The notes under the pieces were generated by a model. It saw only the letters and a list, made by a program, of their open reading frames with translations. It did not search any database and was not told the origin of the DNA. This document shows, piece after piece, positions 703 through 56,639 of a stretch of 64,000 nt of DNA; the stretch's first letter is position 1, and each line of letters opens with the position of its first letter. Source of the DNA: Candidatus Woesearchaeota archaeon (lineage in GTDB: Archaea > Nanobdellota > Nanobdellia > Pacearchaeales > GW2011-AR1); contig CAYITD010000005.1 in the NCBI GenBank assembly GCA_964366325.1, positions 8,267 through 72,266 on the forward strand. Direction: 5' to 3'. The position numbers and the translations under genes are program-made.

Positions 703-886
703 TTAGATAGATAATAAAAGAAGGATATTTTTATTTTAGTTTTTTACATTATAGTTTTCTAGAGAAAAAGGAAAAAACAACAGCTTTAAAAAGCATCAAA
801 TCTCTTGATTTATAGGAATTTGATTAATTTCGTGTATAGGAATAGCAAGTCTATTTCTGATCGAGTGTTTGAATTTTAAAAATAAA

Positions 887-2302
887 ATGAATGAAGAAAG
901 CTTCAATGAGTTAGGATTGGGAGAAAACCTACTGAAAGTTATAGAAGAAATGAGGTTTACCGAACCTACTGAAATACAGAAGAAGGCCGTTCCTTTGGTT
1001 TTAAAAGATAAAGATGTTATCGGAAATTCTGCCACGGGATCTGGGAAAACTTTGGCGTTTAGTGCAGGTATAATTGAAAATTCTAAAAGAGGCTTGGGTG
1101 TTCAGGCTTTGATTTTGACTCCTACTAGAGAACTTGCAGACCAAGTAGCGCACTCAATAAAACAGTTCGCTAAATATTATAGGCTTAACATTGAAGAGGT
1201 TTATGGAGGGGTTTCCATGGGTCCTCAGATAAGAAAAGTGGAGCACGCGGACATAGTTGTTGGCACTCCTGGAAGAATTTTGGATCATATAGAGAAAAGA
1301 ACACTTAATTTGTCTAAATTGAAAACTCTTGTTTTGGATGAAGCTGATAGAATGGTAGATATGGGTTTTCTTCCTGATGTTGAAAAAATAATAAACTCTT
1401 GTCCAAAAGAAAGACAGACTCTTTTGTTTTCTGCAACTATCTCTCAGGACATAAATTACATTTCTAAAAAATATATGAAAAGCCCTGTTTTTGTTGGTGT
1501 TGAAACTTATGTTGATGCTTCAAAACTTAAACAAATTTATTATGATATTCCTTTAAATCAGAAGTTTTCATTATTGGTTCACTTATTAAAAAAGGAAAGA
1601 CCTGGACTGGTAATGGTATTTTGTAACACAAGAAGAAATGCCGATATTGTAACGAGGAATTTGTTTAGATATGGACTGAAAGCTGTGGCAATTCATGGTG
1701 GTTTGGAGCAAAATAGAAGGAGTAATATCATGAAAGAATTTCATGCTCAAAGCATAGGTATTTTAGTTTGTACGGATGTTGCAGCTCGTGGCCTAGATAT
1801 AAAGAATGTTTCGCACATTTACAATTATGATTTGCCTATGAATAGCGCAGATTATATACATAGAATAGGAAGAACAGCCAGAGCTGGAAAAGAAGGAGAA
1901 GCTATAAGTTTGGTTTCTAATAGAGATTATGAGAACTTTGGAAAAATCAAGATGGATGATTCTTTAAAGATAAATGATGAAAAGCTTCCTGAGTTTGAAC
2001 AACTAACGCCTAACTTTTCTAAAGAAGCTGATGAAAGAAGAGGTTCTGGAGGCGGAGGAAGATTTGGAGGGAATAGAAGTTTTGGTGGAAGATCTGGAGG
2101 AAGTGGTGGTAGATTCGGTGGTGGATCAAGAGGAGGATCTTCAGGACCTAGAAGGTTTGGAGGAAATAGAGAAGGTTCAAGTAGGGGCGGAGGAAGATTT
2201 GGAGGATCAAGAGATGGAGGATCTTCTGGTTCAGGTAGGTTTGGTGGAGAACGAAGGGGTGGAGAAAGAAGAAGTTTTGGTGGAAGAAGATTTTCTAGAT
2301 AG
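887..2302 (+). CDS. DEAD-box ATP-dependent RNA helicase with C-terminal RGG/RFGG repeat tail
   Basis: Q-motif region TEPTEIQ, motif I ATGSGKT, PTRELA, VLDEADRM, SAT, HRIGRTARAG; tail of repeated GGRFGG; start moved to ATG 887 (MNEESFNELGL). Confidence 0.9.
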   Translation: MNEESFNELGLGENLLKVIEEMRFTEPTEIQKKAVPLVLKDKDVIGNSATGSGKTLAFSAGIIENSKRGLGVQALILTPTRELADQVAHSIKQFAKYYRLNIEEVYGGVSMGPQIRKVEHADIVVGTPGRILDHIEKRTLNLSKLKTLVLDEADRMVDMGFLPDVEKIINSCPKERQTLLFSATISQDINYISKKYMKSPVFVGVETYVDASKLKQIYYDIPLNQKFSLLVHLLKKERPGLVMVFCNTRRNADIVTRNLFRYGLKAVAIHGGLEQNRRSNIMKEFHAQSIGILVCTDVAARGLDIKNVSHIYNYDLPMNSADYIHRIGRTARAGKEGEAISLVSNRDYENFGKIKMDDSLKINDEKLPEFEQLTPNFSKEADERRGSGGGGRFGGNRSFGGRSGGSGGRFGGGSRGGSSGPRRFGGNREGSSRGGGRFGGSRDGGSSGSGRFGGERRGGERRSFGGRRFSR

Positions 2303-2756: not shown

Positions 2757-2818
2757 AAAAAATAAAAATCCCAATCACAGCTTGCTGTGCGGTATTAACT
2801 CAGTTCGATCAATAAATT
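2757..2818 (+). repeat. intergenic hairpin repeat family, short form (copy A)
   Basis: A-tract, hairpin CACAG-CTTG-CTGTG (2776-2789), then GGTATTAACTCAGTTCGATCAATAAA shared with copies at 6.6, 43.2 and 46.3 kb. Confidence 0.7.
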
Positions 2819-3131: not shown

Positions 3132-3482
3132 CTAAGAATTGTATAAGCGCCTTGTTTGTTCTAAATTACGCAAAGCGTACTGTGAATGTTCTTTTTCTTC
3201 CCTAGGAAGAAAGCACCTAGCTATTTTTCTACTGTCATGACCTATATCTAAAAATCCTATGCTTGCTCCTCTTGCTAAGTCGCTTGGACTTAAACTTTTT
3301 TTATCAACATCAATTATCGTACCATCTCTTATAATGTATGTGAAACTTAAGCTTCCTGTAAGTCCACCTCTATGAGTTACGTATTGATCTAAGTTTAGGC
3401 CTTTTAAAAATCTTAAATTTTGCTCTGCTACTGTTTCACCAGTCCTGCTATCTACTTCTTCTAAATCTGTCTCTAAACGCAT
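3132..3482 (-). CDS. hypothetical protein (orphan)
   Basis: 116-aa ORF; TATA-like CTTATAAG about 25 nt upstream of ATG; no motif recognised. Confidence 0.4.
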   Translation of the reverse strand: MRLETDLEEVDSRTGETVAEQNLRFLKGLNLDQYVTHRGGLTGSLSFTYIIRDGTIIDVDKKSLSPSDLARGASIGFLDIGHDSRKIARCFLPREEKEHSQYALRNLEQTRRLYNS

Positions 3483-3576
3483 AAAAATAGGGATATTTTA
3501 GTACTTATAAGTCTTATCTTTTATCTTAGAAGTATAGCACAATAAAACTTTTAACTTGTTAAAAAAGCTCAAACTT

Positions 3577-4491
3577 ATGAAACAGAGAACGGTAGGAAGA
3601 AGCCTTGAATATACTGGAATTGAATTTTATGGCGGTTGTGAAGTAAGAGTTCTTATAGAGCCTGCTGAGGAAGATAGTAGAATTGTTTTTGAAAGCAATA
3701 AAGGTTCTGTTCGAGCTGATATTAACTTAGCTAGACAATCGAAAAGCTCTATCATGTTGGAAGATGGAAAAACAAGAGTGATTCATGTTGAACATATTTT
3801 AGCTACATTATACGCCTATGGTATTGATAACGCTCGTGTAAGATTGGAAAGAATTCCTAGTGGAAGTTATAGTTTATTAGATAAACTAGGCATTGCTACT
3901 GACATTGCTGTTGTTCCAGTTTCACAAGATCGAGAACTAACTCTTTGCAAAAAACTTGACGAAGCTGGGTACGAAGAACAAGGAAAAGAGAGAAAATCGT
4001 TATATCTCCAAGAACCAATTATTTCAGAAAAATTATCTTTTGAAAAAATAGAAAGGGGTTTGATAATTTCTGCAAAAACTGATTATCCTATTCCTGGAGA
4101 ACAGAAAGTTGAATTTGAAATAAATTCTCAAAATTACAGAGATGAATTGGCAAGATCAAGAATGTATGTAAAACACTTACCTAGGGGAATCCCTAAAAAA
4201 ATTGGAAGTTTTCTTGCATGCTTTGCTTATCCTCAATTTGGAATTGGCCATGGTTTTACCCCTGAAACTGTTTTTCTTCCAGTAAAAAATGCAAAAGAAT
4301 GGACAAGACAAGAACTCATGTTTGCTGAAATTGCTAGACATAGTATAGTTGACCGTCTAGGGGCAATTGCCCTATTACCTGGAAGACTAGAAGGAGTTAA
4401 AGTTTCTGCCTATAGGAGTGGACATCAAAATGATATAAATTTCTTAAGAGATTATGTCGCGCCTAAACTTATAAATACTTATTCAAGTTAG
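3577..4491 (+). CDS. LpxC-like UDP-3-O-acyl-GlcNAc deacetylase family protein
   Basis: N-terminus MKQRTVGRS.. parallels E. coli LpxC MIKQRTLKR; HVEHILATLYAYGIDN (E-H pair), RHSIVDRLG (H-x3-D), YRSGHQ; start set to ATG 3577. Confidence 0.75.
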   Translation: MKQRTVGRSLEYTGIEFYGGCEVRVLIEPAEEDSRIVFESNKGSVRADINLARQSKSSIMLEDGKTRVIHVEHILATLYAYGIDNARVRLERIPSGSYSLLDKLGIATDIAVVPVSQDRELTLCKKLDEAGYEEQGKERKSLYLQEPIISEKLSFEKIERGLIISAKTDYPIPGEQKVEFEINSQNYRDELARSRMYVKHLPRGIPKKIGSFLACFAYPQFGIGHGFTPETVFLPVKNAKEWTRQELMFAEIARHSIVDRLGAIALLPGRLEGVKVSAYRSGHQNDINFLRDYVAPKLINTYSS

Positions 4492-4522
4492 CATCTATTA
4501 ATGGAGTGATTAAAGGTTCTGA

Positions 4523-5347
4523 TTACCTTAGAATCTCTCTGTATTCTTGGACTACATCGAATGAGAACTTATTAACGCCTTCAACTGTCTTTTCGTGTTT
4601 TAAGGAATCTAGGATAACTGATAATGGAGCTGTAACGATGTCAGCGCCTACTAAAGCACACTCCCTAAATTGTCTTGCGTTTCTTATGCTGGCTGCTAAG
4701 ACTTGAGTTTTTATTTCGTATTTTTTGAATATTTGCACAATTTTAGAGACTAGATTAACTCCTGAAATTATTCCGTTATCTTCTAAACTTTTCCCTTTCA
4801 CTTTTGTTGGTTCAAAACCAGAAAAGTAATCTGTTTTCTGAAACTTCATTTTTGCTTTTTCTCTTAACATATCATCAATTCTTCCAGCGAAAGGGCTAAC
4901 TATTGCGGCTCCTGCTTTTGCAGCCATTAATGCCTGTTCTGGCGTAAAAATTAGTGTACAGTTTACTGGGATCCCTTCTCTTGAAAAATAGTTTATCGCT
5001 TTTAATCCTTCAAAGTCATTTTCTCCTCTTGAGGTGGCTGTGTTTATAGGTATTTTAATAAAAACATTTTTTGCCACTCTATTGAATTTTTTATATAAAA
5101 CCAGACCTTCTTTAATCATCTGTTCATAATTTGTTGAAGCAACTTCCAAGCTAACTGATTTTCCTTTTCCAACGGTTTCTAATATCTTGGATATGTAAAG
5201 AAACATATCAATTTTATTCCCATTAAAATTTTGTTCCTCTACTGCTGATTTAATCAAAGAAGGATTTGTTGTAACTCCATCTAATATTCCAATTTTAGAA
5301 AGAAAAATTATTTCTTCGATCTTTGCACTGTCAATAAATATTTTCAT
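4523..5347 (-). CDS. tal: transaldolase / fructose-6-phosphate aldolase family (long variant)
   Basis: MKIFIDSA..GVTTNPSLI, Schiff-base region FIKIP, VNCTLIFTPEQALMAAKAGAAIVSPFAGRIDD. Confidence 0.85.
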   Translation of the reverse strand: MKIFIDSAKIEEIIFLSKIGILDGVTTNPSLIKSAVEEQNFNGNKIDMFLYISKILETVGKGKSVSLEVASTNYEQMIKEGLVLYKKFNRVAKNVFIKIPINTATSRGENDFEGLKAINYFSREGIPVNCTLIFTPEQALMAAKAGAAIVSPFAGRIDDMLREKAKMKFQKTDYFSGFEPTKVKGKSLEDNGIISGVNLVSKIVQIFKKYEIKTQVLAASIRNARQFRECALVGADIVTAPLSVILDSLKHEKTVEGVNKFSFDVVQEYREILR

Positions 5348-5434
5348 CTTGCCTCTTTTATATTTTATTAGAGCAAATGAATTATTTAAATCTGTTGAGT
5401 TCGCAAAATTTAAATTTTTATATATTTTACAAAA

Positions 5435-6235
5435 TTATTTTTTATCTTCTAGAATTTTGTAAACTGAAACTCGGTCTGGATACCAAATAAGAAACTCAAA
5501 ATCTCCTTGTTCATTCATCCTTGATAGTGGCATGCCTAAATGCCCAGATTTTACACGCCCTACAACCAAAGGGTTGTCTGGATCAAAGGTATTATCCTTA
5601 TGATTTAGAATATAATTTTGGTAGAGTGTTAGATAATCTTGATCTAGGTCTATACGTCCTGTTGAATTAGAGTAAAATACAATCTCGGCTGGATTTTCAC
5701 CTTTATCAACTATAGGCAGAGAGCCATATTCTTTAAAACTTGCTTTTCCAACTTCTACTAAATTAAAACTTGGGCTTCTAATTAGTTTATGCCATTTGGT
5801 TGGATGTCTTGTTTTATATTTTTCATCTCTTGTTTCATAAACTTGGCTAACCTTATTTTCCTTATGATTCCCTTTTTGGATATCGCTAAAAATACCTAAT
5901 GACCCAGCACCTATTAATATAAGTGCAATTAGACCTCCCAATAATCCTGAACCTTCTGAACTCCCAGCAGAACTACTAGATGAGAAAGTTATAGGGGAAC
6001 TTGAATCTTCACTATCATCGCTGGTTGATTGTCTAGAACTTTCGTTTTTTGTTTGCCTGTGATTTTCACCATAAGTATATCCTTTATCAAATAGAACATC
6101 ATAGTCTGTCATAAGAGATTTAATCTGAATGTCCTGAGCAATGTCTCTTCCAAAATTTCCTTCTAAGCCGGCCTTAACACCTGCCTCATAAATTTCATCA
6201 TTTCTTGTTTTTACCATTTTGATTATCCTACTCAA
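5435..6235 (-). CDS. hypothetical single-pass membrane protein with Ser-rich linker
   Basis: 266-aa ORF; SSSSSAGSSEGS linker followed by TM LLGGLIALILIGAGSLGIF. Confidence 0.4.
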   Translation of the reverse strand: MSRIIKMVKTRNDEIYEAGVKAGLEGNFGRDIAQDIQIKSLMTDYDVLFDKGYTYGENHRQTKNESSRQSTSDDSEDSSSPITFSSSSSAGSSEGSGLLGGLIALILIGAGSLGIFSDIQKGNHKENKVSQVYETRDEKYKTRHPTKWHKLIRSPSFNLVEVGKASFKEYGSLPIVDKGENPAEIVFYSNSTGRIDLDQDYLTLYQNYILNHKDNTFDPDNPLVVGRVKSGHLGMPLSRMNEQGDFEFLIWYPDRVSVYKILEDKK

Positions 6236-6365
6236 ACCTTTACAATTTGAATCCTACTTATCTGAACGCTGACGACAATACACGTGAAACTTGGTTTCCC
6301 GGCAACTTCCATTCTCACGAATGAAAGTGATTCTAACCTTACAGGTGAATCCTGTAAAACATGAA

Positions 6366-6448
6366 CGCCAAGGACAGGATTCGAACCTGTGCTCCCAGAG
6401 GGAATCGGTTTTCAAGACCGACGCTTTGGACCACTCAGCCACCTTGGC
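6366..6448 (-). tRNA. tRNA-Ser (UGA anticodon), long variable arm
   Basis: Minus-strand GCCAAGG..CCTTGGC acceptor, anticodon loop CTTGAAA, long variable arm, T-arm ACAGGTTCGAATCCTGT; TATA-like CTTTATAAG about 25-30 nt upstream. Confidence 0.9.
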
Positions 6449-6546
6449 ATATGGAACAAAATTAATAATGACTTATAAAGCTTTAGAATTTGCTATTTTA
6501 CTGACTGTTTGTTCTATTAATAAGATTACAAAAGTCTTTAGGGATT

Positions 6547-6795
6547 AAAAATAAAAATCCTAAACACAGCAAGCTGTGGGGCATTTTTAAGCCTCAAACT
6601 GAGACTGTCGAAACAAGCTGCAGAGTGTTAAACTCAGTTCGAACAATAAAGAAATTTCCTAAACCTTCGCTATCCCCACAGCAAGCTGATGGAGTATTAC
6701 GCTCGGTTTCTAGATGGAAATTTCTAATTGCCAAATTGACGGCACAGCTCTGCTGTGGTGTATTGAACCCAATTTGACAATAAAAAAATAAATTT
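6547..6795 (+). repeat. intergenic hairpin repeat family, composite four-module copy (copy B)
   Basis: Four hairpin+tail modules; 25-nt core ATTTTTAAGCCTCAAACTGAGACTG at 6583-6607; collinear with copies D/E (first half) and copy F (second half). Confidence 0.75.
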
Positions 6796-7078
6796 ATCCG
6801 AAAAGAGCACTAAGACCTGCCGCGCTTTCACTTGGCTTTTCTTCTTCTTTCTTCTCAACTTTCTTTGCGTCTGCTGGAGCAGCTGCAGGAGCTGAAGCCA
6901 TGATACTTGCGTTTTCAAGTTCTTTAGAGATATCAACACCGTGTAGACTTGCTACTAAAACTTTTATTTTAGATTCGTCTGGATGTGTTCCTGTTGCTGA
7001 GATAACTTTCTTTAGGCTGTCTTCATTTACAGGATGCCCTAACTTATGCAAAAGCAAAGCTGCGTATATATATTCCAT
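6794..7078 (-). CDS. rpl12: 50S ribosomal stalk protein P1 (L12)
   Basis: [11 protein letters not shown].. N-domain, Ala/Pro/Lys/Glu hinge, conserved tail AAGLSALFG. Confidence 0.95.
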
Positions 7079-7546
7079 TTATTTTGTCCTCCTTTCATCG
7101 TAATGGTGAACATAAAAGCGATTTGATAAAGCCTGACCTGTAGATGATGTTGCGTCCAATAGTTCAACCATTAGATGCGGGACAACTTGTAACCCTCTAT
7201 CTACTCTTAAACCTTGGGTTCTAAGCGTTGATTTAATTGCCTCATATCCACCACATAGCGTTCTATAAAATCTGTCCAACTCTCTTCGTGCTTGAAATAA
7301 GTCTCCTTTATCTGCTTGGCGTTGAATACTTTCAACTTGTCTGCTGAAATAGTCCATGTCCACACCAATTGCACTAAAATCTATTGCTAATCCAAGGTCT
7401 ATCATTTCACCCATTTGTTTTGGACTCAACTCATTGAAATGTCCATCCCTTATGTTTCTATCTAACGCTCTACTTCTTAATTCTAAAGTTTCTTCATCTA
7501 AATCTTGTTCTTCAACTTGAAGCATTTTCACTTCCTCCAGAGGCAT
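7079..7546 (-). CDS. hypothetical protein embedded in the stalk operon
   Basis: 155-aa ORF; its start overlaps the P0 3' end by 35 nt and its TAA abuts the P1 ATG (TAAATG); no motif recognised. Confidence 0.5.
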   Translation of the reverse strand: MPLEEVKMLQVEEQDLDEETLELRSRALDRNIRDGHFNELSPKQMGEMIDLGLAIDFSAIGVDMDYFSRQVESIQRQADKGDLFQARRELDRFYRTLCGGYEAIKSTLRTQGLRVDRGLQVVPHLMVELLDATSSTGQALSNRFYVHHYDERRTK

Positions 7547-18283: not shown

Positions 18284-18511
18284 ATGGGAGCGAAGAAGAA
18301 AAAAATAAAGGCTGCTGGAAGATTTGGAGCAGGATATGGGAAAAATGTTAGGGATAGATTTAATGCTGTCGAGGCTCAACAAAGAAGACTTCAACCTTCT
18401 CCGTTTCACCCAACTGGGAAAGCAAAAAGACTCTCTTCTGGAATTTGGAAATGTATAAAGACGGGAAGAGTTTTTGCCGGCCATGCTTATTTCTTAGCGC
18501 CGAGAAAGTAA
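18284..18511 (+). CDS. rpl37ae: 50S ribosomal protein L37Ae (L43e), zinc-ribbon cysteines mostly lost
   Basis: AAGRFGAGYGKNVR, RLSSGIWKC..GRVFAGHAY match the L37Ae pattern; expected CxxC pairs replaced (SPFH, CIKT). Confidence 0.75.
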   Translation: MGAKKKKIKAAGRFGAGYGKNVRDRFNAVEAQQRRLQPSPFHPTGKAKRLSSGIWKCIKTGRVFAGHAYFLAPRK

Positions 18512-18560
18512 TTTTATACTTTTAATTATTTAATAAAGAGATTGCCTAAAAATTCTTTAT

Positions 18561-18606
18561 CCAAATCACACCAAGCTGCGAGGTATTTAACCCAAATAGT
18601 AATAAC
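18561..18606 (+). repeat. intergenic hairpin repeat family, short form (copy C)
   Basis: CACACCAAGCTGCGAG hairpin-like segment then GTATTTAACCCAAATAGTAATAA, matching module 4 of copy B (GTGTATTGAACCCAATTTGACAATAA). Confidence 0.55.
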
Positions 18607-31820: not shown

Positions 31821-34271
31821 TTATTGAATATTACTCGCTGGATCTCTAGGTAGTCTTGTCGGAATTGGTCCGCCTTGTGGAGAAGAAGTACAATATCCAT
31901 CTGTGCACCAAGTGTTACAAGACTGGACTTTTGAATTAGCTATAGTTTCATTTCTTACTGCATCCCAGTCACAGATATATTCTTTTACCATAGTTGTGTT
32001 GAAGCATGAATCTTGAACATTTATTCTATATGCTTCAACGTTTACTATGCCTTTTCTATATGGTTTGTCTCCTCCATCGCTGTCTGTGCAAATTGCTTTG
32101 CATATGCTTGGCTGTCCAGAGCATTCAAAATAACTTTGAATCTGACATGTTGAAGAACAGCCATCTCCGCTATCTAAATTTCCATCGTCGCATCCCTCAG
32201 TCAATTCAATTATATTGTTCCCACACCACGGTTGCTCAAAACAGTATAAATGTGCTAAATTATCACAACGCTTATCATTGTATTGAATAGTCCATTTATA
32301 GTTTATTCTCTCCCATAATCCAAATTCTCCAAACCCCAAATAATGTCCATATGGACCACGCCAATTATAACAATTATAATCGTAATATGAGTCCCCTTGC
32401 GATGATGTGCCTGTCCAAACAGAATCATAAATGCTGTCAATTAGACTATTGTTATATTCTGTTATATTTATAGGATGATCTATATTTCCATCAGTTAAAT
32501 CATGCCAGTTTTTAGCTATGATCTTATTGTTTATGGTTCTATAATCATGCAAATTGCTTTTATAAAATCTTGAGTTGACATCATCGGTTGAATTGCTCAA
32601 CCATGCTTTCCATTTAGAAGAATTCGAAAAACCTGCAGATTTTGCTAAATCATCGCAAATGGCATCCCCAGCTTCTAAACCTCTAAAGATTTGATAAGTT
32701 AAACTGCCGTTATATAGATCAGAAGTTACGAAAACTTTATAAAACGGCCCCCCACAATCGCATCCATCATTTGGATTTGTGTTTCCATCGTCGCATTCCT
32801 CACTTGGAGTTTGTATTATGTTATCTCCACATTTTCCTCCTGTAAAATTTTGATTCATACATAAAGAATTGCAAATTAGACACGTTTCTTCATAAAGATT
32901 ACAGGTCTCAGTTATATTATTTCCATCGTCACATTGTTCACCTTGATCTATTATATTATTTCCACAAACTACTGGTCCTGGAGTTTCATACTCCATGGCA
33001 GTCATTAGCACTGAGTCTATAAATGTTGGAAAAGTTGCCAATATTGTAGTGGAATTTGTTCCCATTTTAAACCCGCGAAGTTTTTTGTTGTTTGCTAGAA
33101 TCACTTCTTTTAACCCATCGTTATCGTAATCTCCAAAATCCGCATCCCAAATGTCTCCTGTCACTTCCGTCATGAAAGTCATATTCCAAGAATTAGATAT
33201 TGGATTCCATTCAAGCAATATAGCTCTACCAGGAAAAAGCGGATCACCCGAGCCTTCCCAACCTCCCGCAACAATATCTGGCTGCAGATCTTCATCAAAG
33301 TATCCAACAGCTAAACCATCTAAGCTCCCTACGATAGGAGCAATAACGCCATCTATCCAACTACCATTAATTTTATCCAGAACATAAATATCAGAGCCAC
33401 CTCTAATAATTTCATTATCGCCATCTCCATCAGCATCCCCAATAATCATGCGATCGCCACAATGCTGTAGTTGCGTAGGAGATATTGCATCCTCAGAAGT
33501 CCAACCTGAATCTGTCTTTCTATAGAGCATAACAGGACAACGTTGAGCCAACCGTCCGTAAGTCACAATTTCGTTCTTACCATCATCATCAACATCTTCG
33601 ATTTTGACATCCTGAATAGATTCTCTACTATTTGTTGATACAAAGGTTTCTGACCAATTTCCATTTTGATATTTATAAAGGCGCACCTTAGATCTATCTG
33701 GAATGTTTTCTCCTTCAAGTCCTACTATAATTTCGTTTCTACCATCGTTATCAGCGTCGCCAACATCTAACGCCTCTATGTGATTTGGTAGCACCCCGCT
33801 TACAATCTGTTGAGTTAGGCTATTTGTAGCATAATAGAAACGGAACACACGTAGTTGTGGTGCAGAAGCTCCATCTAGACCAACAACAATTTCTTTTTTA
33901 TTATCATTATCAACATCACCTACAGCTAAGGCTTCAATTCTCGTAGGTAAATCGGCTTGCGCAATAGTCACATAAGAGCCAGTGCTATTGCGTTGGAGTA
34001 TGCGAAGCTCGTTGGTAGTAGAAAAAAGAGCCACTACAATGTAATTCCTATTTTGCTCAGGAGAAAACGATATGCTATTATCTTCTATATTTTTACCTGT
34101 TTGAGCTTCTTCATTATATTTGTTATCAACATCAATAATATCTGAAAAAATAGTCGCGATCAAAACAGCAAGTGTTAATACGACCAAAGAAAAAACTATC
34201 TTGCTTTGCGGACTTTCAAGAATAAGTTTGTTATTCTTTGTATGGAATCCTCTTTTTCTATTTTTCACCAT
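31821..34271 (-). CDS. large surface protein: N-terminal anchor, FG-GAP/VCBS-like beta-propeller repeats, Cys-rich CxxxC-DDGN repeats, C-type-lectin/DUF1554-like module
   Basis: Repeated GDVDNDNKKEIVVG, GDADNDGRNEIIVG, EDVDDDGKNEIV, GDADGDGDNEII, GDYDNDGLKEVIL; CGNNIIDQGEQCDDGNN, CGDNIIQTPSEECDDGNTNPNDGCD, CGNNIIELTEGCDDGNLDSGDGCSSTCQ; FVTSDLYNGSL..GDAICDDLAKSAGF..WKAWLS..CDNLAHLYCFEQ. Confidence 0.7.
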   Translation of the reverse strand: MVKNRKRGFHTKNNKLILESPQSKIVFSLVVLTLAVLIATIFSDIIDVDNKYNEEAQTGKNIEDNSISFSPEQNRNYIVVALFSTTNELRILQRNSTGSYVTIAQADLPTRIEALAVGDVDNDNKKEIVVGLDGASAPQLRVFRFYYATNSLTQQIVSGVLPNHIEALDVGDADNDGRNEIIVGLEGENIPDRSKVRLYKYQNGNWSETFVSTNSRESIQDVKIEDVDDDGKNEIVTYGRLAQRCPVMLYRKTDSGWTSEDAISPTQLQHCGDRMIIGDADGDGDNEIIRGGSDIYVLDKINGSWIDGVIAPIVGSLDGLAVGYFDEDLQPDIVAGGWEGSGDPLFPGRAILLEWNPISNSWNMTFMTEVTGDIWDADFGDYDNDGLKEVILANNKKLRGFKMGTNSTTILATFPTFIDSVLMTAMEYETPGPVVCGNNIIDQGEQCDDGNNITETCNLYEETCLICNSLCMNQNFTGGKCGDNIIQTPSEECDDGNTNPNDGCDCGGPFYKVFVTSDLYNGSLTYQIFRGLEAGDAICDDLAKSAGFSNSSKWKAWLSNSTDDVNSRFYKSNLHDYRTINNKIIAKNWHDLTDGNIDHPINITEYNNSLIDSIYDSVWTGTSSQGDSYYDYNCYNWRGPYGHYLGFGEFGLWERINYKWTIQYNDKRCDNLAHLYCFEQPWCGNNIIELTEGCDDGNLDSGDGCSSTCQIQSYFECSGQPSICKAICTDSDGGDKPYRKGIVNVEAYRINVQDSCFNTTMVKEYICDWDAVRNETIANSKVQSCNTWCTDGYCTSSPQGGPIPTRLPRDPASNIQ

Positions 34272-34321
34272 GCGATACACTATTACTTATTGAAATAAAC
34301 TATGGAGCATATATAAATATT

Positions 34322-34649: not shown

Positions 34650-34745
34650 CTATGCAACAACTAAAGAAAAAATTATCTTACTTCTTGTGCTTTCAAGAAT
34701 AAATCTGTTGTTCTTTGTATGTAACCTTCTCTTTTTATTTTTCAT
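34650..34745 (-). pseudogene. 31-codon remnant paralogous to the 5' end of the 31821-34271 surface protein gene
   Basis: MKNKKRRLHTKNNRFILESTRSKIIFSLVVA* versus MVKNRKRGFHTKNNKLILESPQSKIVFSLVV; nucleotide blocks CTTTCAAGAATAA and TTCTTTGTATG are identical. Confidence 0.6.
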
Positions 34746-40437: not shown

Positions 40438-40624
40438 CATAGCCTCGCCAGCTCACGAGATTGCAATCTCGGATCCTCTAACATTTAACATGTTTGGAGT
40501 GATTCAAACCTTCCAGGTTCGAAGAGATAGCCTCGCCAGTCTGAAGAAATCTAACAATTAATTTCTTGGCACTGTCGATGCTAATTTTATCTCGTTTCAC
40601 TCGATAATAACATAGCCTCGCCAG
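40438..40624. repeat. three direct copies of the tRNA-Gln 3' end (ATAGCCTCGCCAG), about 85-89 nt apart
   Basis: Identical 13-mer at 40439-40451, 40527-40539 and 40612-40624 (the last is the acceptor/T-stem end of tRNA-Gln); perfect 16-nt palindrome CGAGATTGCAATCTCG inside the first spacer. Confidence 0.75.
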
Positions 40625-40712
40625 GATTCGAACCTGGGTCATGGGAGTTCTCTTACAGCACTAAAGCACATTAACCAGAGTCCCATATCCTAGACCGCTA
40701 GACGACAAGGCT
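40613..40712 (-). tRNA. tRNA-Gln (CUG anticodon) with 27-nt intron at 37/38
   Basis: A1-U72 acceptor AGCCTTG/CGAGGCT, anticodon stem TGGGA/TCCCA, loop CTCTGG^..^C; intron at 40648-40674; 4-bp helix CTCT/AGAG flanked by 3-nt bulges; T-arm CCAGGTTCGAATCCTGG. Confidence 0.8.
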
Positions 40713-42596: not shown

Positions 42597-42911
42597 ATGA
42601 ATTGGATAATAGTTGCGGGTATCGTAGTTGTATTGTATGTGTTATTTATGTTTAAAATGAACAACTTTAGAACTAAAGTTGCTTTTATATTTATATTTCT
42701 CGGGGTTTGTTTTGTTTTGATGACAGCTTATTATGTTCTTTCTGATAATAAACCTGATTTGTCAAATATAGATGGATGGACACAAAGCGGTAAAGTGTAC
42801 TTTTCATGGCTTACTAATGCTTTTAGCAGCGCTTTTAAAGTAACTGGCGATGCAATAAAAGAAATTGGAGGAAATGTAGCGAAAAACTCTACAAATATTA
42901 CGAGAAAATGA
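42597..42911 (+). CDS. hypothetical membrane protein
   Basis: 104 aa, two TM segments; ATGA overlap with the next ORF. Confidence 0.4.
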   Translation: MNWIIVAGIVVVLYVLFMFKMNNFRTKVAFIFIFLGVCFVLMTAYYVLSDNKPDLSNIDGWTQSGKVYFSWLTNAFSSAFKVTGDAIKEIGGNVAKNSTNITRK

Positions 42912-43165
42912 AGATAGGAATATTTATAGTTAAATTTGTTTTTATTGGCATGTTGTTCATAGTTAGTACGGAGAATCTTTATATGAAAAATGCTGAAGAT
43001 AGAGCAACTTTTGCTGGCCAGGTTTATAATTGGGTAGGGGAACTTTTCTCACACGTTTGGCAGATAACTGGTTTCGTTGTAAACTCTGAATGGTTGCCTA
43101 AAGATATGAATGAAAGTAAAAGCTCTTTTGAAGATAGTTTGAAAATTACAAGCAAACTATCTTGA
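42908..43165 (+). CDS. hypothetical membrane protein
   Basis: 85 aa, N-terminal TM. Confidence 0.35.
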   Translation: MKIGIFIVKFVFIGMLFIVSTENLYMKNAEDRATFAGQVYNWVGELFSHVWQITGFVVNSEWLPKDMNESKSSFEDSLKITSKLS

Positions 43166-43203: not shown

Positions 43204-43305
43204 AATAAAAATCCCAACCTCAGCAAGCTGTGGGGTATTTTTAAGCCTCAAACTGAGACTGATCGTGGAAGCTGCGGAGTATTAATTCAGTTCGAGCAAT
43301 CAACA
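43204..43305 (+). repeat. intergenic hairpin repeat family, two-module copy (copy D)
   Basis: AAAAATCCCAACCTCAGCAAGCTGTGGGGTATTTTT hairpin, 25-nt core at 43237-43261, then GTGGAAGCTGCGGAGTATTAATTCAGTTCGAGCAATCA. Confidence 0.8.
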
Positions 43306-43402
43306 GAATTGTCTATAACAAAGTTTTTTATATATGGAAAATGAACTTATTTTATGCCTCTATAGCTCAATGACACAAAATATATAAAGTTTCTAATTAT
43401 TT

Positions 43403-44425
43403 ATGCCTATGAGAGTAAAATTTAGAGAAGAAGTTGATCGAAAAAAGTTTTTTGAGTTGTTGAAAACTGGACTCAATAGTAACTGGAAGAATATAAGGAA
43501 AAAGTTTAATGTACCAAAATCTACCTTTGAAAAATACAAAAATGGTAAACTGCTTATTTCAGATGATTTATTTGAAAAATTATTAATTTATGTAGATGAA
43601 AATAAAAAAAAGTCTATAAAAGAAAGTATAGAAAATTTACCAGATAATTTCGGACAAATTAAGGGTGGTAAAAAAGCATATGTTATAAATTTTGAAAAAT
43701 TTAAGGAAGGTAGAAAAATAAGAAGTAAATCTGGAGAAAAATTAAATAAACAGTATAGAAATTTGTTTAAGGGCTTTGACTTAAAACCAGAGGTTTGTGA
43801 ACTAATTGGTGCTTTCATAGGCGATGGTTGTTTTAATGTTTATAAAAATAAAGTTTATCATATAGAGTTTTCTGGAAATTTTGGACTGGATATAGAATAT
43901 TATCAAGAAAGAATTATTCCGATAATTGAATCAATCATAGAATATATAAATCCACATATTTACAAACCGAAAACAAAAAATAATGCATTAAGAGTTGTAT
44001 TTTATTCCAAAAAACTTTTTTACTTCCTTAAAGAAATTGTTGGTTTTATTCCAGGAAAAAAGACATTCACTGTTGCAATACCTGAAAAAATTATGAATAA
44101 TGAAGAATTAATGAGATCTACAATAAGAGGAATATTTGACACAGACGGAACAATTTTCTTGGATAGAAGAAAAAGCTATAAAAAGCCATACCCTAGAATT
44201 TCTTTACAAACGGTAAGTAAGAACCTTTATGGGCAGTTAGAAAACTATCTGAGTGAAAAATTCAGTCTTTATACATACTTTAATGAAAAAAGGCATGTTT
44301 ATATAATAGAAATTTATGGTATCAATCAGCTGAGAAAGTGGATGTCTCTTATAGGTTTCTCGAATAAAAGACATCTTGATAAAGTTGCCCTAGTAGCTCA
44401 GTCGGTAAGAGCGCAACATTGGTAA
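43403..44425 (+). CDS. double-motif LAGLIDADG homing-endonuclease-like protein
   Basis: LIGAFIGDGCF and IRGIFDTDGTIF motifs; the ORF runs 39 nt into tRNA-Thr and stops at a TAA in its anticodon loop. Confidence 0.75.
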   Translation: MPMRVKFREEVDRKKFFELLKTGLNSNWKNIRKKFNVPKSTFEKYKNGKLLISDDLFEKLLIYVDENKKKSIKESIENLPDNFGQIKGGKKAYVINFEKFKEGRKIRSKSGEKLNKQYRNLFKGFDLKPEVCELIGAFIGDGCFNVYKNKVYHIEFSGNFGLDIEYYQERIIPIIESIIEYINPHIYKPKTKNNALRVVFYSKKLFYFLKEIVGFIPGKKTFTVAIPEKIMNNEELMRSTIRGIFDTDGTIFLDRRKSYKKPYPRISLQTVSKNLYGQLENYLSEKFSLYTYFNEKRHVYIIEIYGINQLRKWMSLIGFSNKRHLDKVALVAQSVRAQHW

Positions 44426-44460
44426 TGTTGAGGTCGGGGGTTCAAGTCCCCCCTGGGGCT
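44387..44460 (+). tRNA. tRNA-Thr (GGU anticodon)
   Basis: GCCCTAG/CTGGGGC acceptor, D-arm GCTCAGTCGGTAAGAGC, anticodon arm CAACA-TTGGTAA-TGTTG, T-arm GGGGGTTCAAGTCCCCC. Confidence 0.9.
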
Positions 44461-45694: not shown

Positions 45695-45807
45695 TTTATA
45701 TTCTTAGCGGAGACTTCAAACCTTAGCTATAGAGAACTTTGCAAAATTGCTAAGAGTTCTCTAACAAGAACATAAATTATTAAAAAGTGATTTGTCTAAA
45801 GCAGGAA

Positions 45808-46287
45808 ATGGCATTTGCAGATATTTGGACAGATTTGTTACATCCTTACACTTTCAGGGTACAGAGGAACGAGAGAGAAGTTTTTTACACTCCTTTAGAT
45901 AGCAAGTTGCGTATTCCTTCTGCTTCTTTTGCAAAACAAGGATTGTGTATTGGTTCCAAAAGGCCAAATGATAAGAGGGAGCTTGAGGATTATTGTCCTG
46001 TTAAGAGTTTTACAGAATGGCCAACTGTTGAAAGTCGAGGATTTATGACTGCGGATTTTTCCATTGGTAGAAGGATCAAAACATTGGAGGGATTATCTGC
46101 AAGAGCTCTTAGAGCCCCAACATTTTCTCATAAGATACTTCAATTAAGCAAGGAAGAGGTTGATCAATTTACCGAGCGAGCGTATGTAGATTTTGAAAAT
46201 AGGATCGCTGGACTTGGACTTCAAACAGAAAGAGATAAGATGTTCTTTAGATTCTACTTTGTAAGTCCAGATCATAGGCCAGATTGA
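45808..46287 (+). CDS. hypothetical protein (orphan, island gene)
   Basis: ORF from ATG 45808 (MAFADIW..); no motif recognised. Confidence 0.35.
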   Translation: MAFADIWTDLLHPYTFRVQRNEREVFYTPLDSKLRIPSASFAKQGLCIGSKRPNDKRELEDYCPVKSFTEWPTVESRGFMTADFSIGRRIKTLEGLSARALRAPTFSHKILQLSKEEVDQFTERAYVDFENRIAGLGLQTERDKMFFRFYFVSPDHRPD

Positions 46288-46388
46288 TAAAAATACCCTA
46301 CAGCTGCTGTGTTTGGTATTTTTAAGCCTCAAACTGAGACTGATTGTGGCAAGTTGCGAAGTATTAACTCAGTTCGAGCGATAAAATA
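46288..46388 (+). repeat. intergenic hairpin repeat family, two-module copy (copy E)
   Basis: AAAAATACC..CTACAGCTGCTGTG..GGTATTTTT long hairpin, 25-nt core at 46318-46342, then GTGGCAAGTTGCGAAGTATTAACTCAGTTCGAGCGATAAA. Confidence 0.8.
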
Positions 46389-55947: not shown

Positions 55948-56256
55948 TTAGAATAAATCAACAAAGGTTCTGCAGAAACGTTCTTTTGCTATTTTTAGAC
56001 CTTTAGTGCCTTCAGCAGTTAAAGAATAATAAATTGATTTTCCTTCTTTCTTTTCTTTTATTAAACCGGCTTCTTTTAATGATTTTAAAGCAGGGTAAAC
56101 GGTTCCAGGGCTTGGTTTCTCTCCTTTTCTCTTTTCAATCTCTTTCGCAAGGTCTTGCCCAGACATTTCTTTTTTTGAAACAAGGAATAAAATAAGGAAA
56201 GAGAGAAAACCGCGCATATCACAGCAATAACTATCTGGACATTTTTCTTTTGACAT
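55948..56256 (-). CDS. padR: PadR-family transcriptional regulator
   Basis: LSFLILFLVSKKEMSGQDLAKEIE..PSPGTVYPALKSLKEAGLI..YYSLTAEG. Confidence 0.8.
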   Translation of the reverse strand: MSKEKCPDSYCCDMRGFLSFLILFLVSKKEMSGQDLAKEIEKRKGEKPSPGTVYPALKSLKEAGLIKEKKEGKSIYYSLTAEGTKGLKIAKERFCRTFVDLF

Positions 56257-56328
56257 TTTATTATTGGGTGACCGATATATTTAAATACTTGTATTGTTCT
56301 TATATCGCATGACCGATACTAATATGAA

Positions 56329-56457
56329 GAAATTTCCTGAAAATCTCTATGTAAACCGCAGCAAGTTGTTGGATATTTTGCGATTTTCCAATGCGGAAAT
56401 TTCTAATTACCATTTGGCCGATGCAAACATCGGAGTGTTAAGCTCAAATGGCAATGA
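56329..56457 (+). repeat. intergenic hairpin repeat family, copy F (collinear with modules 3-4 of copy B)
   Basis: Shared GAAATTTCCT (56329-56338), GGAAATTTCTAATT (56395-56408), hairpin CCGATG-CAAA-CATCGG, tail AGTGTTAAGCTCAAATGGCAATGAAAG. Confidence 0.65.
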
Positions 56458-56639
56458 AAGGAGGTGGATGTAAAATGGAGTGTTATGGATATTCTGGAGG
56501 AAGCTGTGGCTCTGGTCGAACAATGAGAGGTTTTCTTACAAAGGAAGAAAAGATACAAATGTTAAAAGATTACAAGGAAAGCCTTGATAAAGAGTCTAAA
56601 GGAGTAGGGGAGAGAATTTCTGAGATTGAAGATGAGTAA
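56448..56639 (+). CDS. small Gly/Cys-rich N-terminus plus coiled-coil protein
   Basis: 63-aa ORF; alternative ATG 56475 is preceded by AAGGAGG; architecture reminiscent of DUF5320-type proteins, weak call. Confidence 0.35.
   Translation: MAMKGGGCKMECYGYSGGSCGSGRTMRGFLTKEEKIQMLKDYKESLDKESKGVGERISEIEDE

Follow-up and report, generated by a model that had tools for sequence, protein, structure and literature searches.

REP/BIME sequences with their RAYT transposases and the pneumococcal BOX repeats are bacterial families of repeats; REPs combine a GTAG motif with a hairpin and are not known to leave a heptamer repeat. The TnpA transposase of IS200/IS605 and the REP-associated transposases act on folded hairpins in single-stranded DNA. 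PATEs of Haloquadratum walsbyi, which come from IS200/IS605-type transposons, are without terminal inverted repeats, carry a pair of similar palindromes close to their ends and also occur as 52-bp forms with the core deleted (PMC3119063). Rickettsia palindromic elements (RPEs) are short palindromic repeats found between genes and in frame within unrelated protein genes, where they contribute a peptide and leave the frame unbroken (PMC10969869). In an automated survey of archaea, a Woesearchaeal genome ranked with those densest in MITEs, at 105 cMITEs per Mb (PMC11602168).

Here we analysed a 64,000-nucleotide stretch of archaeal DNA (the window; G+C 33%), which encodes the archaeal ribosomal proteins L11, L1 and P0 as well as aEF-1α, FtsZ and others, and which is closest, within the genome collection, to Pacearchaeota and Woesearchaeota MAGs. 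An ORF at 3556–4491 (plus strand) has a clear LpxC (UDP-3-O-acyl-GlcNAc deacetylase) domain (E = 5e-28), which is unexpected in an archaeon. The window carries two repeats, termed alpha and beta, that form a new family within a known kind, the small non-autonomous mobile repeats. The elements are 68–127 nt long and without an ORF of their own, and their host is a groundwater DPANN archaeon of the Woesearchaeota/Nanoarchaeota type. The family is notable for its clean insertion footprints, its in-frame copies within archaeal proteins and the mismatch between hairpin-type ends and a flanking repeat.

Anatomy of the block between rpl12 and tRNA-Ser

The block at 6550–6785 consists of two two-module mobile elements in tandem, alpha and then beta on the plus strand, and is not one four-module element. 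Its parts and neighbours are listed below; loci outside the window carry L numbers.

6365–6449, minus strand: tRNA-Ser(tga), found by ARAGORN and Rfam; downstream neighbour of the repeat block on this strand
6450–6549, minus strand: non-repeat part of the rpl12/tRNA-Ser gap, from sequence reading and by-eye alignment to L150 and L147
6550–6556, plus strand: 5′ target heptamer AATAAAA, the same heptamer that flanks most alpha copies
6557–6644, plus strand: alpha body, modules 1 and 2, 88 nt (covariance model R1, 98.1 bits; folds; boundaries from a filled/empty comparison)
6645–6651, plus strand: middle heptamer AATAAAG at the alpha/beta junction (TATAAAG at the same junction in L135)
6652–6778, plus strand: beta body, modules 3 and 4, 127 nt (alignments with window copy E, L135 and L133; folds)
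6779–6785, plus strand: 3′ target heptamer AATAAAA, which belongs to the minus-strand T-run behind the rpl12 stop
6794–7078, minus strand: rpl12 (archaeal P1/L12), 94 aa, named from its translation and from orthologues in L146, L147 and L150

Each module is a short hairpin followed by RGYRTT and enclosed by an outer stem, and each element has two modules. In alpha, outer stem 1 pairs 6552–6561 with 6579–6589 and outer stem 2 pairs 6594–6603 with 6633–6642; in beta, outer stem 3 pairs 6650–6659 with 6716–6725 and outer stem 4 pairs 6731–6738 with 6770–6776. The original prediction had described four hairpin modules, and three of the hairpin cores were recovered (hairpin 1, 6565–6578; hairpin 3, 6676–6692; hairpin 4, 6743–6757), whereas hairpin 2 (~6609–6623) is eroded in the composite. 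Fold z-scores against shuffled sequences were −2.6, +0.23, −2.1 and −3.5 for modules 1 to 4. The motif RGTRTT, thought to follow every hairpin, is exact after two of the four (AGTGTT at 6624–6629 and AGTATT at 6693–6698), with GGCATT and GGTGTATT after the others. In module 1 the sequence at the position of this motif forms the outer stem's 3′ arm and is not a tail.

The predicted kinship with other copies in the window was confirmed. R1, a covariance model of alpha built from 19 unique copies of modules 1 and 2, gave 98 bits at 6.5 kb and 101 and 83 bits for the copies at 43.2 and 46.3 kb (E ~1e-17 to 1e-21), and modules 3 and 4 are collinear over their full length with 56324–56460 and with two copies from other contigs (L135 and L133). 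The two blocks reported as shared each occur exactly twice in the window, GAAATTTCCT at 6651–6660 and 56329–56338 and GGAAATTTCTAATT at 6716–6729 and 56395–56408; each forms one arm of the inverted repeat that makes up the outer stem of module 3. All this lies far beyond chance: a 24-nt core was present in 22 metagenome contigs, and in groundwater runs the contig depth over the alpha core and module 3 was 30–60 times the flanking depth.

The repeat had also been said to fill the entire gap between the two genes. We found that the composite takes up 236 of the 344 nt, and that 6450–6549 instead holds the TATA region of tRNA-Ser and the distal half of a terminator hairpin. A TATA-like box, TTTATAA (~6473–6480, minus strand), lies ~30 nt upstream of tRNA-Ser and, as read from the sequence, would be its promoter. 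Of the old rpl12 terminator hairpin, the distal half reads TTTTTAATCCCTAAAGA on the minus strand (~6535–6551), and the rpl12 stop codon at 6794–6796 is followed on that strand by TTTATTTTTTTATT. On the other side of rpl12, a 155-aa ORF without a Pfam match (7079–7546, minus strand) lies between it and rpl10/P0 (7512–8330) and overlaps the P0 end; since P0 abuts rpl12 directly in L146 and L150, this looks like an extra gene in the conserved ribosomal operon.

To see the state of the locus without the repeat, we compared it with the relatives L146, L147 and L150. All three keep the order rpl10–rpl12–tRNA-Ser(tga), with tRNA-Ser(tga) likewise after rpl12, and in all three the element is absent. 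After the rpl12 stop, L147 and L150 read CTCTTTGGATAA(G/AC)TTATTTTTT(T)ATTT(T)AATCCAAAGAG, and in both a hairpin whose loop is T-rich, CTCTTTGGATAAGTTTATTTTTTTATTTAATCCAAAGAG, contains the stop. On the window's minus strand, CGGATAAATTTATTTTTTTATT precedes and ATTTTTATTTTTAATCCCTAAAGAC follows the reverse-complemented composite. Because element-free relatives keep the hairpin with its T-rich loop and the composite lies inside that loop, the oligo-T run is ancestral. The idea that the end of module 4 supplies the oligo-T run after rpl12 is thus reversed, the run having been there first as the insertion target. No empty rpl12 site was seen in close relatives, the relatives compared having P0 protein 48–59% identical to that of the window, and contigs of the groundwater population all agree with the window.

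Insertion footprints and the target heptamer

The repeat family has been recently mobile, inserts in one fixed orientation and tolerates in-frame sites. The clearest case is a filled/empty pair in genes for a 517-aa Cys-rich protein, whose orthologues in L136 (filled, 5717–5798) and L151 (empty) are 94% identical. They differ by exactly 75 nt in frame, made up of a 68-nt body and a second AATAAAA: L151 reads AAG AATAAAA CTGAGG, and L136 reads AAG AATAAAA [68 nt ATCCC...TTTGAGC] AATAAAA CTGAGG. Two further proteins carry inserts of the same family. A GT-C-like membrane protein in L133 has a 26-aa insert from a 78-nt beta copy, absent in 15 of 15 aligned homologues, and an AbiEii-like protein in L137 has a 32-aa (96-nt) insert from a full alpha copy, absent in eight of eight (nearest 88% identical); nearly all of the 120 AbiEii-like homologues listed are ~32 aa shorter than the L137 protein. 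Joints that skip the element at the composite (copy B) and at copies C and D were sought in the groundwater runs, and none was seen. The filled/empty pair and the sharp target offer a starting point for finding the mover of hairpin elements in uncultured archaea.

The window holds six loci, which by rough extrapolation corresponds to ~90 loci per Mb in the host. Besides the composite these are:

2761–2817, plus strand: copy A, a one-hairpin form in which the 5′ end of alpha is fused at the hairpin to the 3′ tail (R1, 21.4 bits)
18533–18606, plus strand: copy F, decayed and beta-like, downstream of a small ORF (~18286–18510)
43204–43304, plus strand: copy C, alpha (R1, 101.2 bits), 39 nt past the stop of an 85-aa ORF (42908–43165)
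46286–46386, plus strand: copy D, alpha with module 1 flipped (R1, 83.3 bits) and GATAAAA on both sides
56324–56460, plus strand: copy E, beta alone, between a PadR gene and a 63-aa ORF on the plus strand

The R1 span of copy A is 2762–2814 (53 nt), with ~43 nt between its heptamers AATAAAA and AATAAAT. The 5′ heptamer of copy D overlaps the stop of the ORF at 45787–46287. Copy C lies upstream of a BRE/TATA-like sequence, AAAGTTTTTTATATA. The flanks of copy E are ATGAAG and AATGAAAG, the 3′ copy containing the ATG of the 63-aa ORF. Read by eye, the small ORF before copy F appears to encode an L37Ae-like ribosomal protein. The neighbours of copy E are a PadR-family gene (55948–56256, minus strand) and the Cys/Gly-rich 63-aa ORF (56448–56639); the flanking repeat, ATGAA(A)G, duplicates the start of this ORF, and the upstream ATG opens a 44-codon out-of-frame frame through the element. 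A LAGLIDADG_3 homing-endonuclease-like ORF (43403–44425) ends inside tRNA-Thr(ggt) (44387–44460), and just upstream of the ORF lies a tRNA-like 5′ fragment, GCCTCTATAGCTCAATG, at 43347–43363; in contigs of two groundwater runs 43369 is joined directly to 44432, one side of the joint covering just 21 nt. A link between the repeat and LAGLIDADG genes was considered and rejected, as LAGLIDADG_3 is in the ORF after copy C, not after copy D, and the neighbours elsewhere are unrelated.

The heptamer AATAAAA stands on both sides of most alpha copies, and it is present once in the empty L151 site and twice in the filled L136 site. Variants are common to both flanks in several copies (GATAAAA in D, GATAAA in L140 and ATGAA in E), as a target duplication predicts. 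In contrast, a subfamily ending in GAGCAGTGA (L125, L130, L134 and the first L136 copy) is without the 3′ heptamer. The shared variants support a true target duplication, whereas this subfamily, which does not fit a simple duplication model, supports a flanking repeat that is partly the element's own end. The heptamer is A-rich and contains TAA, which explains why alpha starts near stop codons: in ~13 of 19 alpha copies the stop of the co-oriented upstream gene lies 0–45 nt before the element start or inside it.

These footprints bear on how the composite arose. The four-module block had been proposed as a full-length master element with partial copies elsewhere; it would then move as one unit, and the two- and one-module copies would be truncated derivatives. 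A second alpha-then-beta pair in the same order does occur in an unrelated context next to MetRS (L135:3901–4166), so that movement of alpha and beta as one unit is conceivable, and the short forms clearly derive from internal deletion. However, comparison with an empty site or with homologues proves that alpha and beta each insert singly as a complete unit, bounded on its own and with a heptamer on either side (alpha in L136 against empty L151, alpha in the AbiEii-like gene of L137, and beta in the membrane-protein gene of L133). Furthermore, a heptamer copy sits exactly at the alpha/beta junction in both composites (TATAAAG in L135), and alpha and beta are related to each other with the same two-unit plan, which fits two elements better. 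We consider a master element very unlikely.

The other proposal, that modules accumulate stepwise at permissive sites, stood in part: the growth is stepwise and the permissive site is AATAAAA, but the unit is the two-module element rather than a single hairpin module. We therefore favour, with a probability of about 0.8, a tandem of two related non-autonomous elements of PATE/MITE/RPE-like type, built by stepwise insertion into a self-regenerating target. At rpl12 the hairpin behind the stop would have offered the target in its T-rich loop, which contains AATAAAA when read on the plus strand. One element would land first in this terminator-hairpin loop, leaving a heptamer on both sides as each insertion does, and one of these flanking copies would then take up the second element beside it. 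The outcome would be AATAAAA-alpha-AATAAAG-beta-AATAAAA. The rpl12 T-run and the tRNA-Ser promoter region appear to have been left intact, and the element is most likely selfish. A streamlined DPANN archaeon thus contains a family of tiny repeats without a transposase that is active or was so until recently. These repeats reshape the spacers beside core genes (rpl12 and tRNA-Ser) and add peptides of 25–32 residues to real proteins.

Family structure and readings as RNA or peptide

The whole collection comprises 19 unique alpha copies and four beta copies. Copies were gathered by an exact 24-mer, so that the conservation of the 24-nt core is an ascertainment effect; pattern searches were also used for beta. 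All metagenome contigs with the repeat come from 0.1–0.2 µm fractions of Hainich groundwater wells. Among the species representatives of the genome collection, the element was found in one Woesearchaeota MAG only (L119), in a copy identical to that of the Hainich contig L129. Nothing relevant was found in the viral contigs scanned, and a genome scan with a degenerate 17-mer returned chance matches only. Most copies are intergenic, and some 4 of the 25 unique ones fall within genes.

R1 matches beta at low score, placing module 4 against module 2 and module 3 against module 1 (in the composite, a weak match at 6714–6783). These weak matches of the alpha model mark beta as a diverged relative of alpha that shares its plan. 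Within an element, a stretch of ~21 nt consisting of a hairpin and RGTATT occurs twice as a direct repeat (hairpin 1 with GGTATT, hairpin 2 with AGTATT). Short forms, in which hairpin 1 is joined straight to the 3′ tail, were found in copy A and at L138:381–434, and variants without hairpin 2 in L134, L136 and L138. The short forms clearly arise by deletion between the two similar hairpins of the element.

The stems are kept through compensatory changes. In the outer stem of module 3 the window pairs GAAATTTCC/GGAAATTTC, L135 pairs GAGATTGC/GCAATCTC and L133 pairs AGAGATTT/AAATCTCT, and hairpin 4 is CACAGC/GCTGTG at 6.7 kb versus CCGATG/CATCGG at 56.4 kb; in the MAFFT alignment of the four beta copies the outer stem of module 4 is out of register. 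Such changes would also be expected of a structured RNA family, either 3′-UTR or terminator elements or small RNA genes, with the composite as a double terminator or insulator whose hairpins and internal U5 tract act at the RNA level. The position of alpha copies just past, or on, the stop of a co-oriented upstream gene agrees with this, as does module 1, where a GC-clamped hairpin is followed by TATTTTT and the opposite strand also has a T5 run. A promoter-like BRE/TATA of the next gene downstream of the element points the same way.

Several observations run against the RNA reading. Copies lie in frame in three protein genes and their presence differs between orthologues that are 94% identical. 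Orientation to the neighbours varies, copies A and B being antisense to both. The closeness to stop codons is explained by the TAA-containing target, and neither a conserved upstream promoter nor an Rfam match was found. In addition, the interior of module 1 is the reverse complement of the usual one in L127, L134 and window copy D, with CAAG or CTTG as loop, and stem mismatches showed no strand bias (28 G·U versus 21 A·C). Inverted interiors together with similar G·U and A·C counts are the behaviour of a DNA palindrome and lend no support to one transcribed strand. We judge a structured RNA family distinctly unlikely as the nature of the repeat; a secondary RNA role, such as terminating transcription as a side effect, may be compatible with mobility. 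A look for the locus in RNA runs found none that contains it. Beside the alpha copy of L127 is a gyrB gene (3178–5697, minus strand) with an intein (Intein_splicing domain, residues 440–639).

Three narrower RNA candidates were rejected. A riboswitch or 5′-leader does not fit, as the BRE/TATA-like box comes after the element, no gene follows copies A and B on the strand that they occupy, and Rfam returned nothing. A plus-strand RNA was suggested by hairpin 2 of C, D and L126, which looked rich in G·U pairs, but the full count is the 28 versus 21 given above. For H/ACA, C/D box and K-turn RNAs the required boxes are absent, judged from sequence alone. Across the window only tRNAs reached the Rfam gathering score, and in 6450–6800 the best match (E = 0.095) was far below it. 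One of the tRNAs, of 100 nt at 40613–40712 (minus strand; 48.8 bits), was missed by ARAGORN and is probably intron-bearing.

A peptide origin was weighed as well, in which the repeats would be remnants of a duplicated protein-coding module. All six stops of alpha are confined to one forward frame, which leaves the other two stop-free (P ~0.016 by shuffling), one frame of the composite stays open between 6505 and 6780, and the in-gene copies are translated. Yet a start codon is absent from intergenic copies, copies differ in frame through indels whose length is not divisible by three, conservation tracks base pairing rather than codons, and the peptide is absent from homologues of the host proteins, which makes this origin extremely unlikely. 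The two stop-free frames do lead ORF callers to extend downstream genes through intergenic copies: mechanical ORF calls gave extended N-termini to the genes downstream of the alpha copies of L119, L133, L139 and L142. Public gene calls may carry false N-terminal extensions at such copies. For annotation this means that in-gene copies are reported as ordinary protein sequence and that downstream ORFs are extended through intergenic copies.

Relation to described mobile elements

We searched for an enzyme that could move the elements. No transposase domain was found in the scanned window ORFs of at least 90 aa, nor beside copies in other contigs. Y1_Tnp and OrfB had no match in the scanned ORFs of the window and the fetched loci, where no related IS or full-length element with the same ends was found either. 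On the boundaries from the filled/empty pair, terminal inverted repeats are absent, the ends ATCCCAAT... and ...TTTGAGC not being complementary; inverted repeats bound individual modules only and not the whole element. In the stepwise model, a trans-acting enzyme would recognise the folded hairpin units, probably on single-stranded DNA.

The family resembles PATEs in having no terminal inverted repeats, two alike near-terminal palindromes in direct orientation, strictly oriented insertion beside a short specific sequence, and copies that far outnumber transposase genes. Core deletion between the palindromes yields forms of ~52 nt in PATEs, and copy A here has 53 nt. On the reverse strand, the distances from element end to hairpin (~23 and 8 nt) fit the long-left, short-right layout of IS200/IS605. 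However, PATEs and IS200/IS605 make no target duplication, whereas here a heptamer stands on both sides with variants common to both flanks; this argues against a classical IS200/IS605 derivative, and PATE membership is therefore not established. Furthermore, there is no sequence similarity to any described PATE, and no TnpA or TnpB gene was found in the ORFs searched.

MITEs share with the family a small, non-coding and multicopy nature, strong secondary structure and a short direct repeat on both sides, which here may be a duplication of the target. The whole element is without terminal inverted repeats, which argues against a classical MITE, and no parent insertion sequence was found for it in the window or the fetched loci. 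The likeness to RPEs lies in the three in-frame copies (75, 78 and 96 nt) in unrelated genes, absent from homologues, and in the two stop-free frames; in contrast to RPEs, the host is an archaeon rather than an alphaproteobacterium, the sequence is unrelated, and the elements are smaller and mostly intergenic. The REP/BIME and BOX families resemble ours in a conserved motif beside an imperfect palindrome (here AATAC and a hairpin on the reverse strand), in clustered mosaics and in a modular make-up with variable module content. Unlike REP/BIME, our family has the heptamer repeat, and no RAYT-like gene was seen.

An element recognised by its hairpins, without terminal inverted repeats and yet with a 7-bp A-rich target copy on both sides, may move by a mechanism outside the described classes. 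Internal complementarity to the target was found in alpha, where ATTTTT lies opposite AAAAAT, and in beta, where CT lies opposite AG of AATAAAG, which would suggest that the target is chosen by base pairing. The confinement of all stops to one frame may reflect selection for harmless in-frame residence. Taken together, movement by a mechanism outside the described classes, with target choice by base pairing and such selection, would be a rather unlikely combination. If the in-frame selection is true, the family would play in archaea the part of RPEs and would regularly supply new peptide loops to the small DPANN proteomes.

Other repetitive sequence was also noted in the window. An 88-nt direct repeat (34180–34267 and 34657–34744; 81% identical, spaced 477 nt) overlaps with one copy, 34180–34267, the 5′ end of a gene for an 819-aa FG-GAP repeat protein (31821–34280), the other copy lying upstream of the gene. 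A DEAD-box helicase encoded at 869–2302 (plus strand) has a repetitive Gly/Arg-rich C-terminal tail, with nucleotide repeats at 2047–2305.
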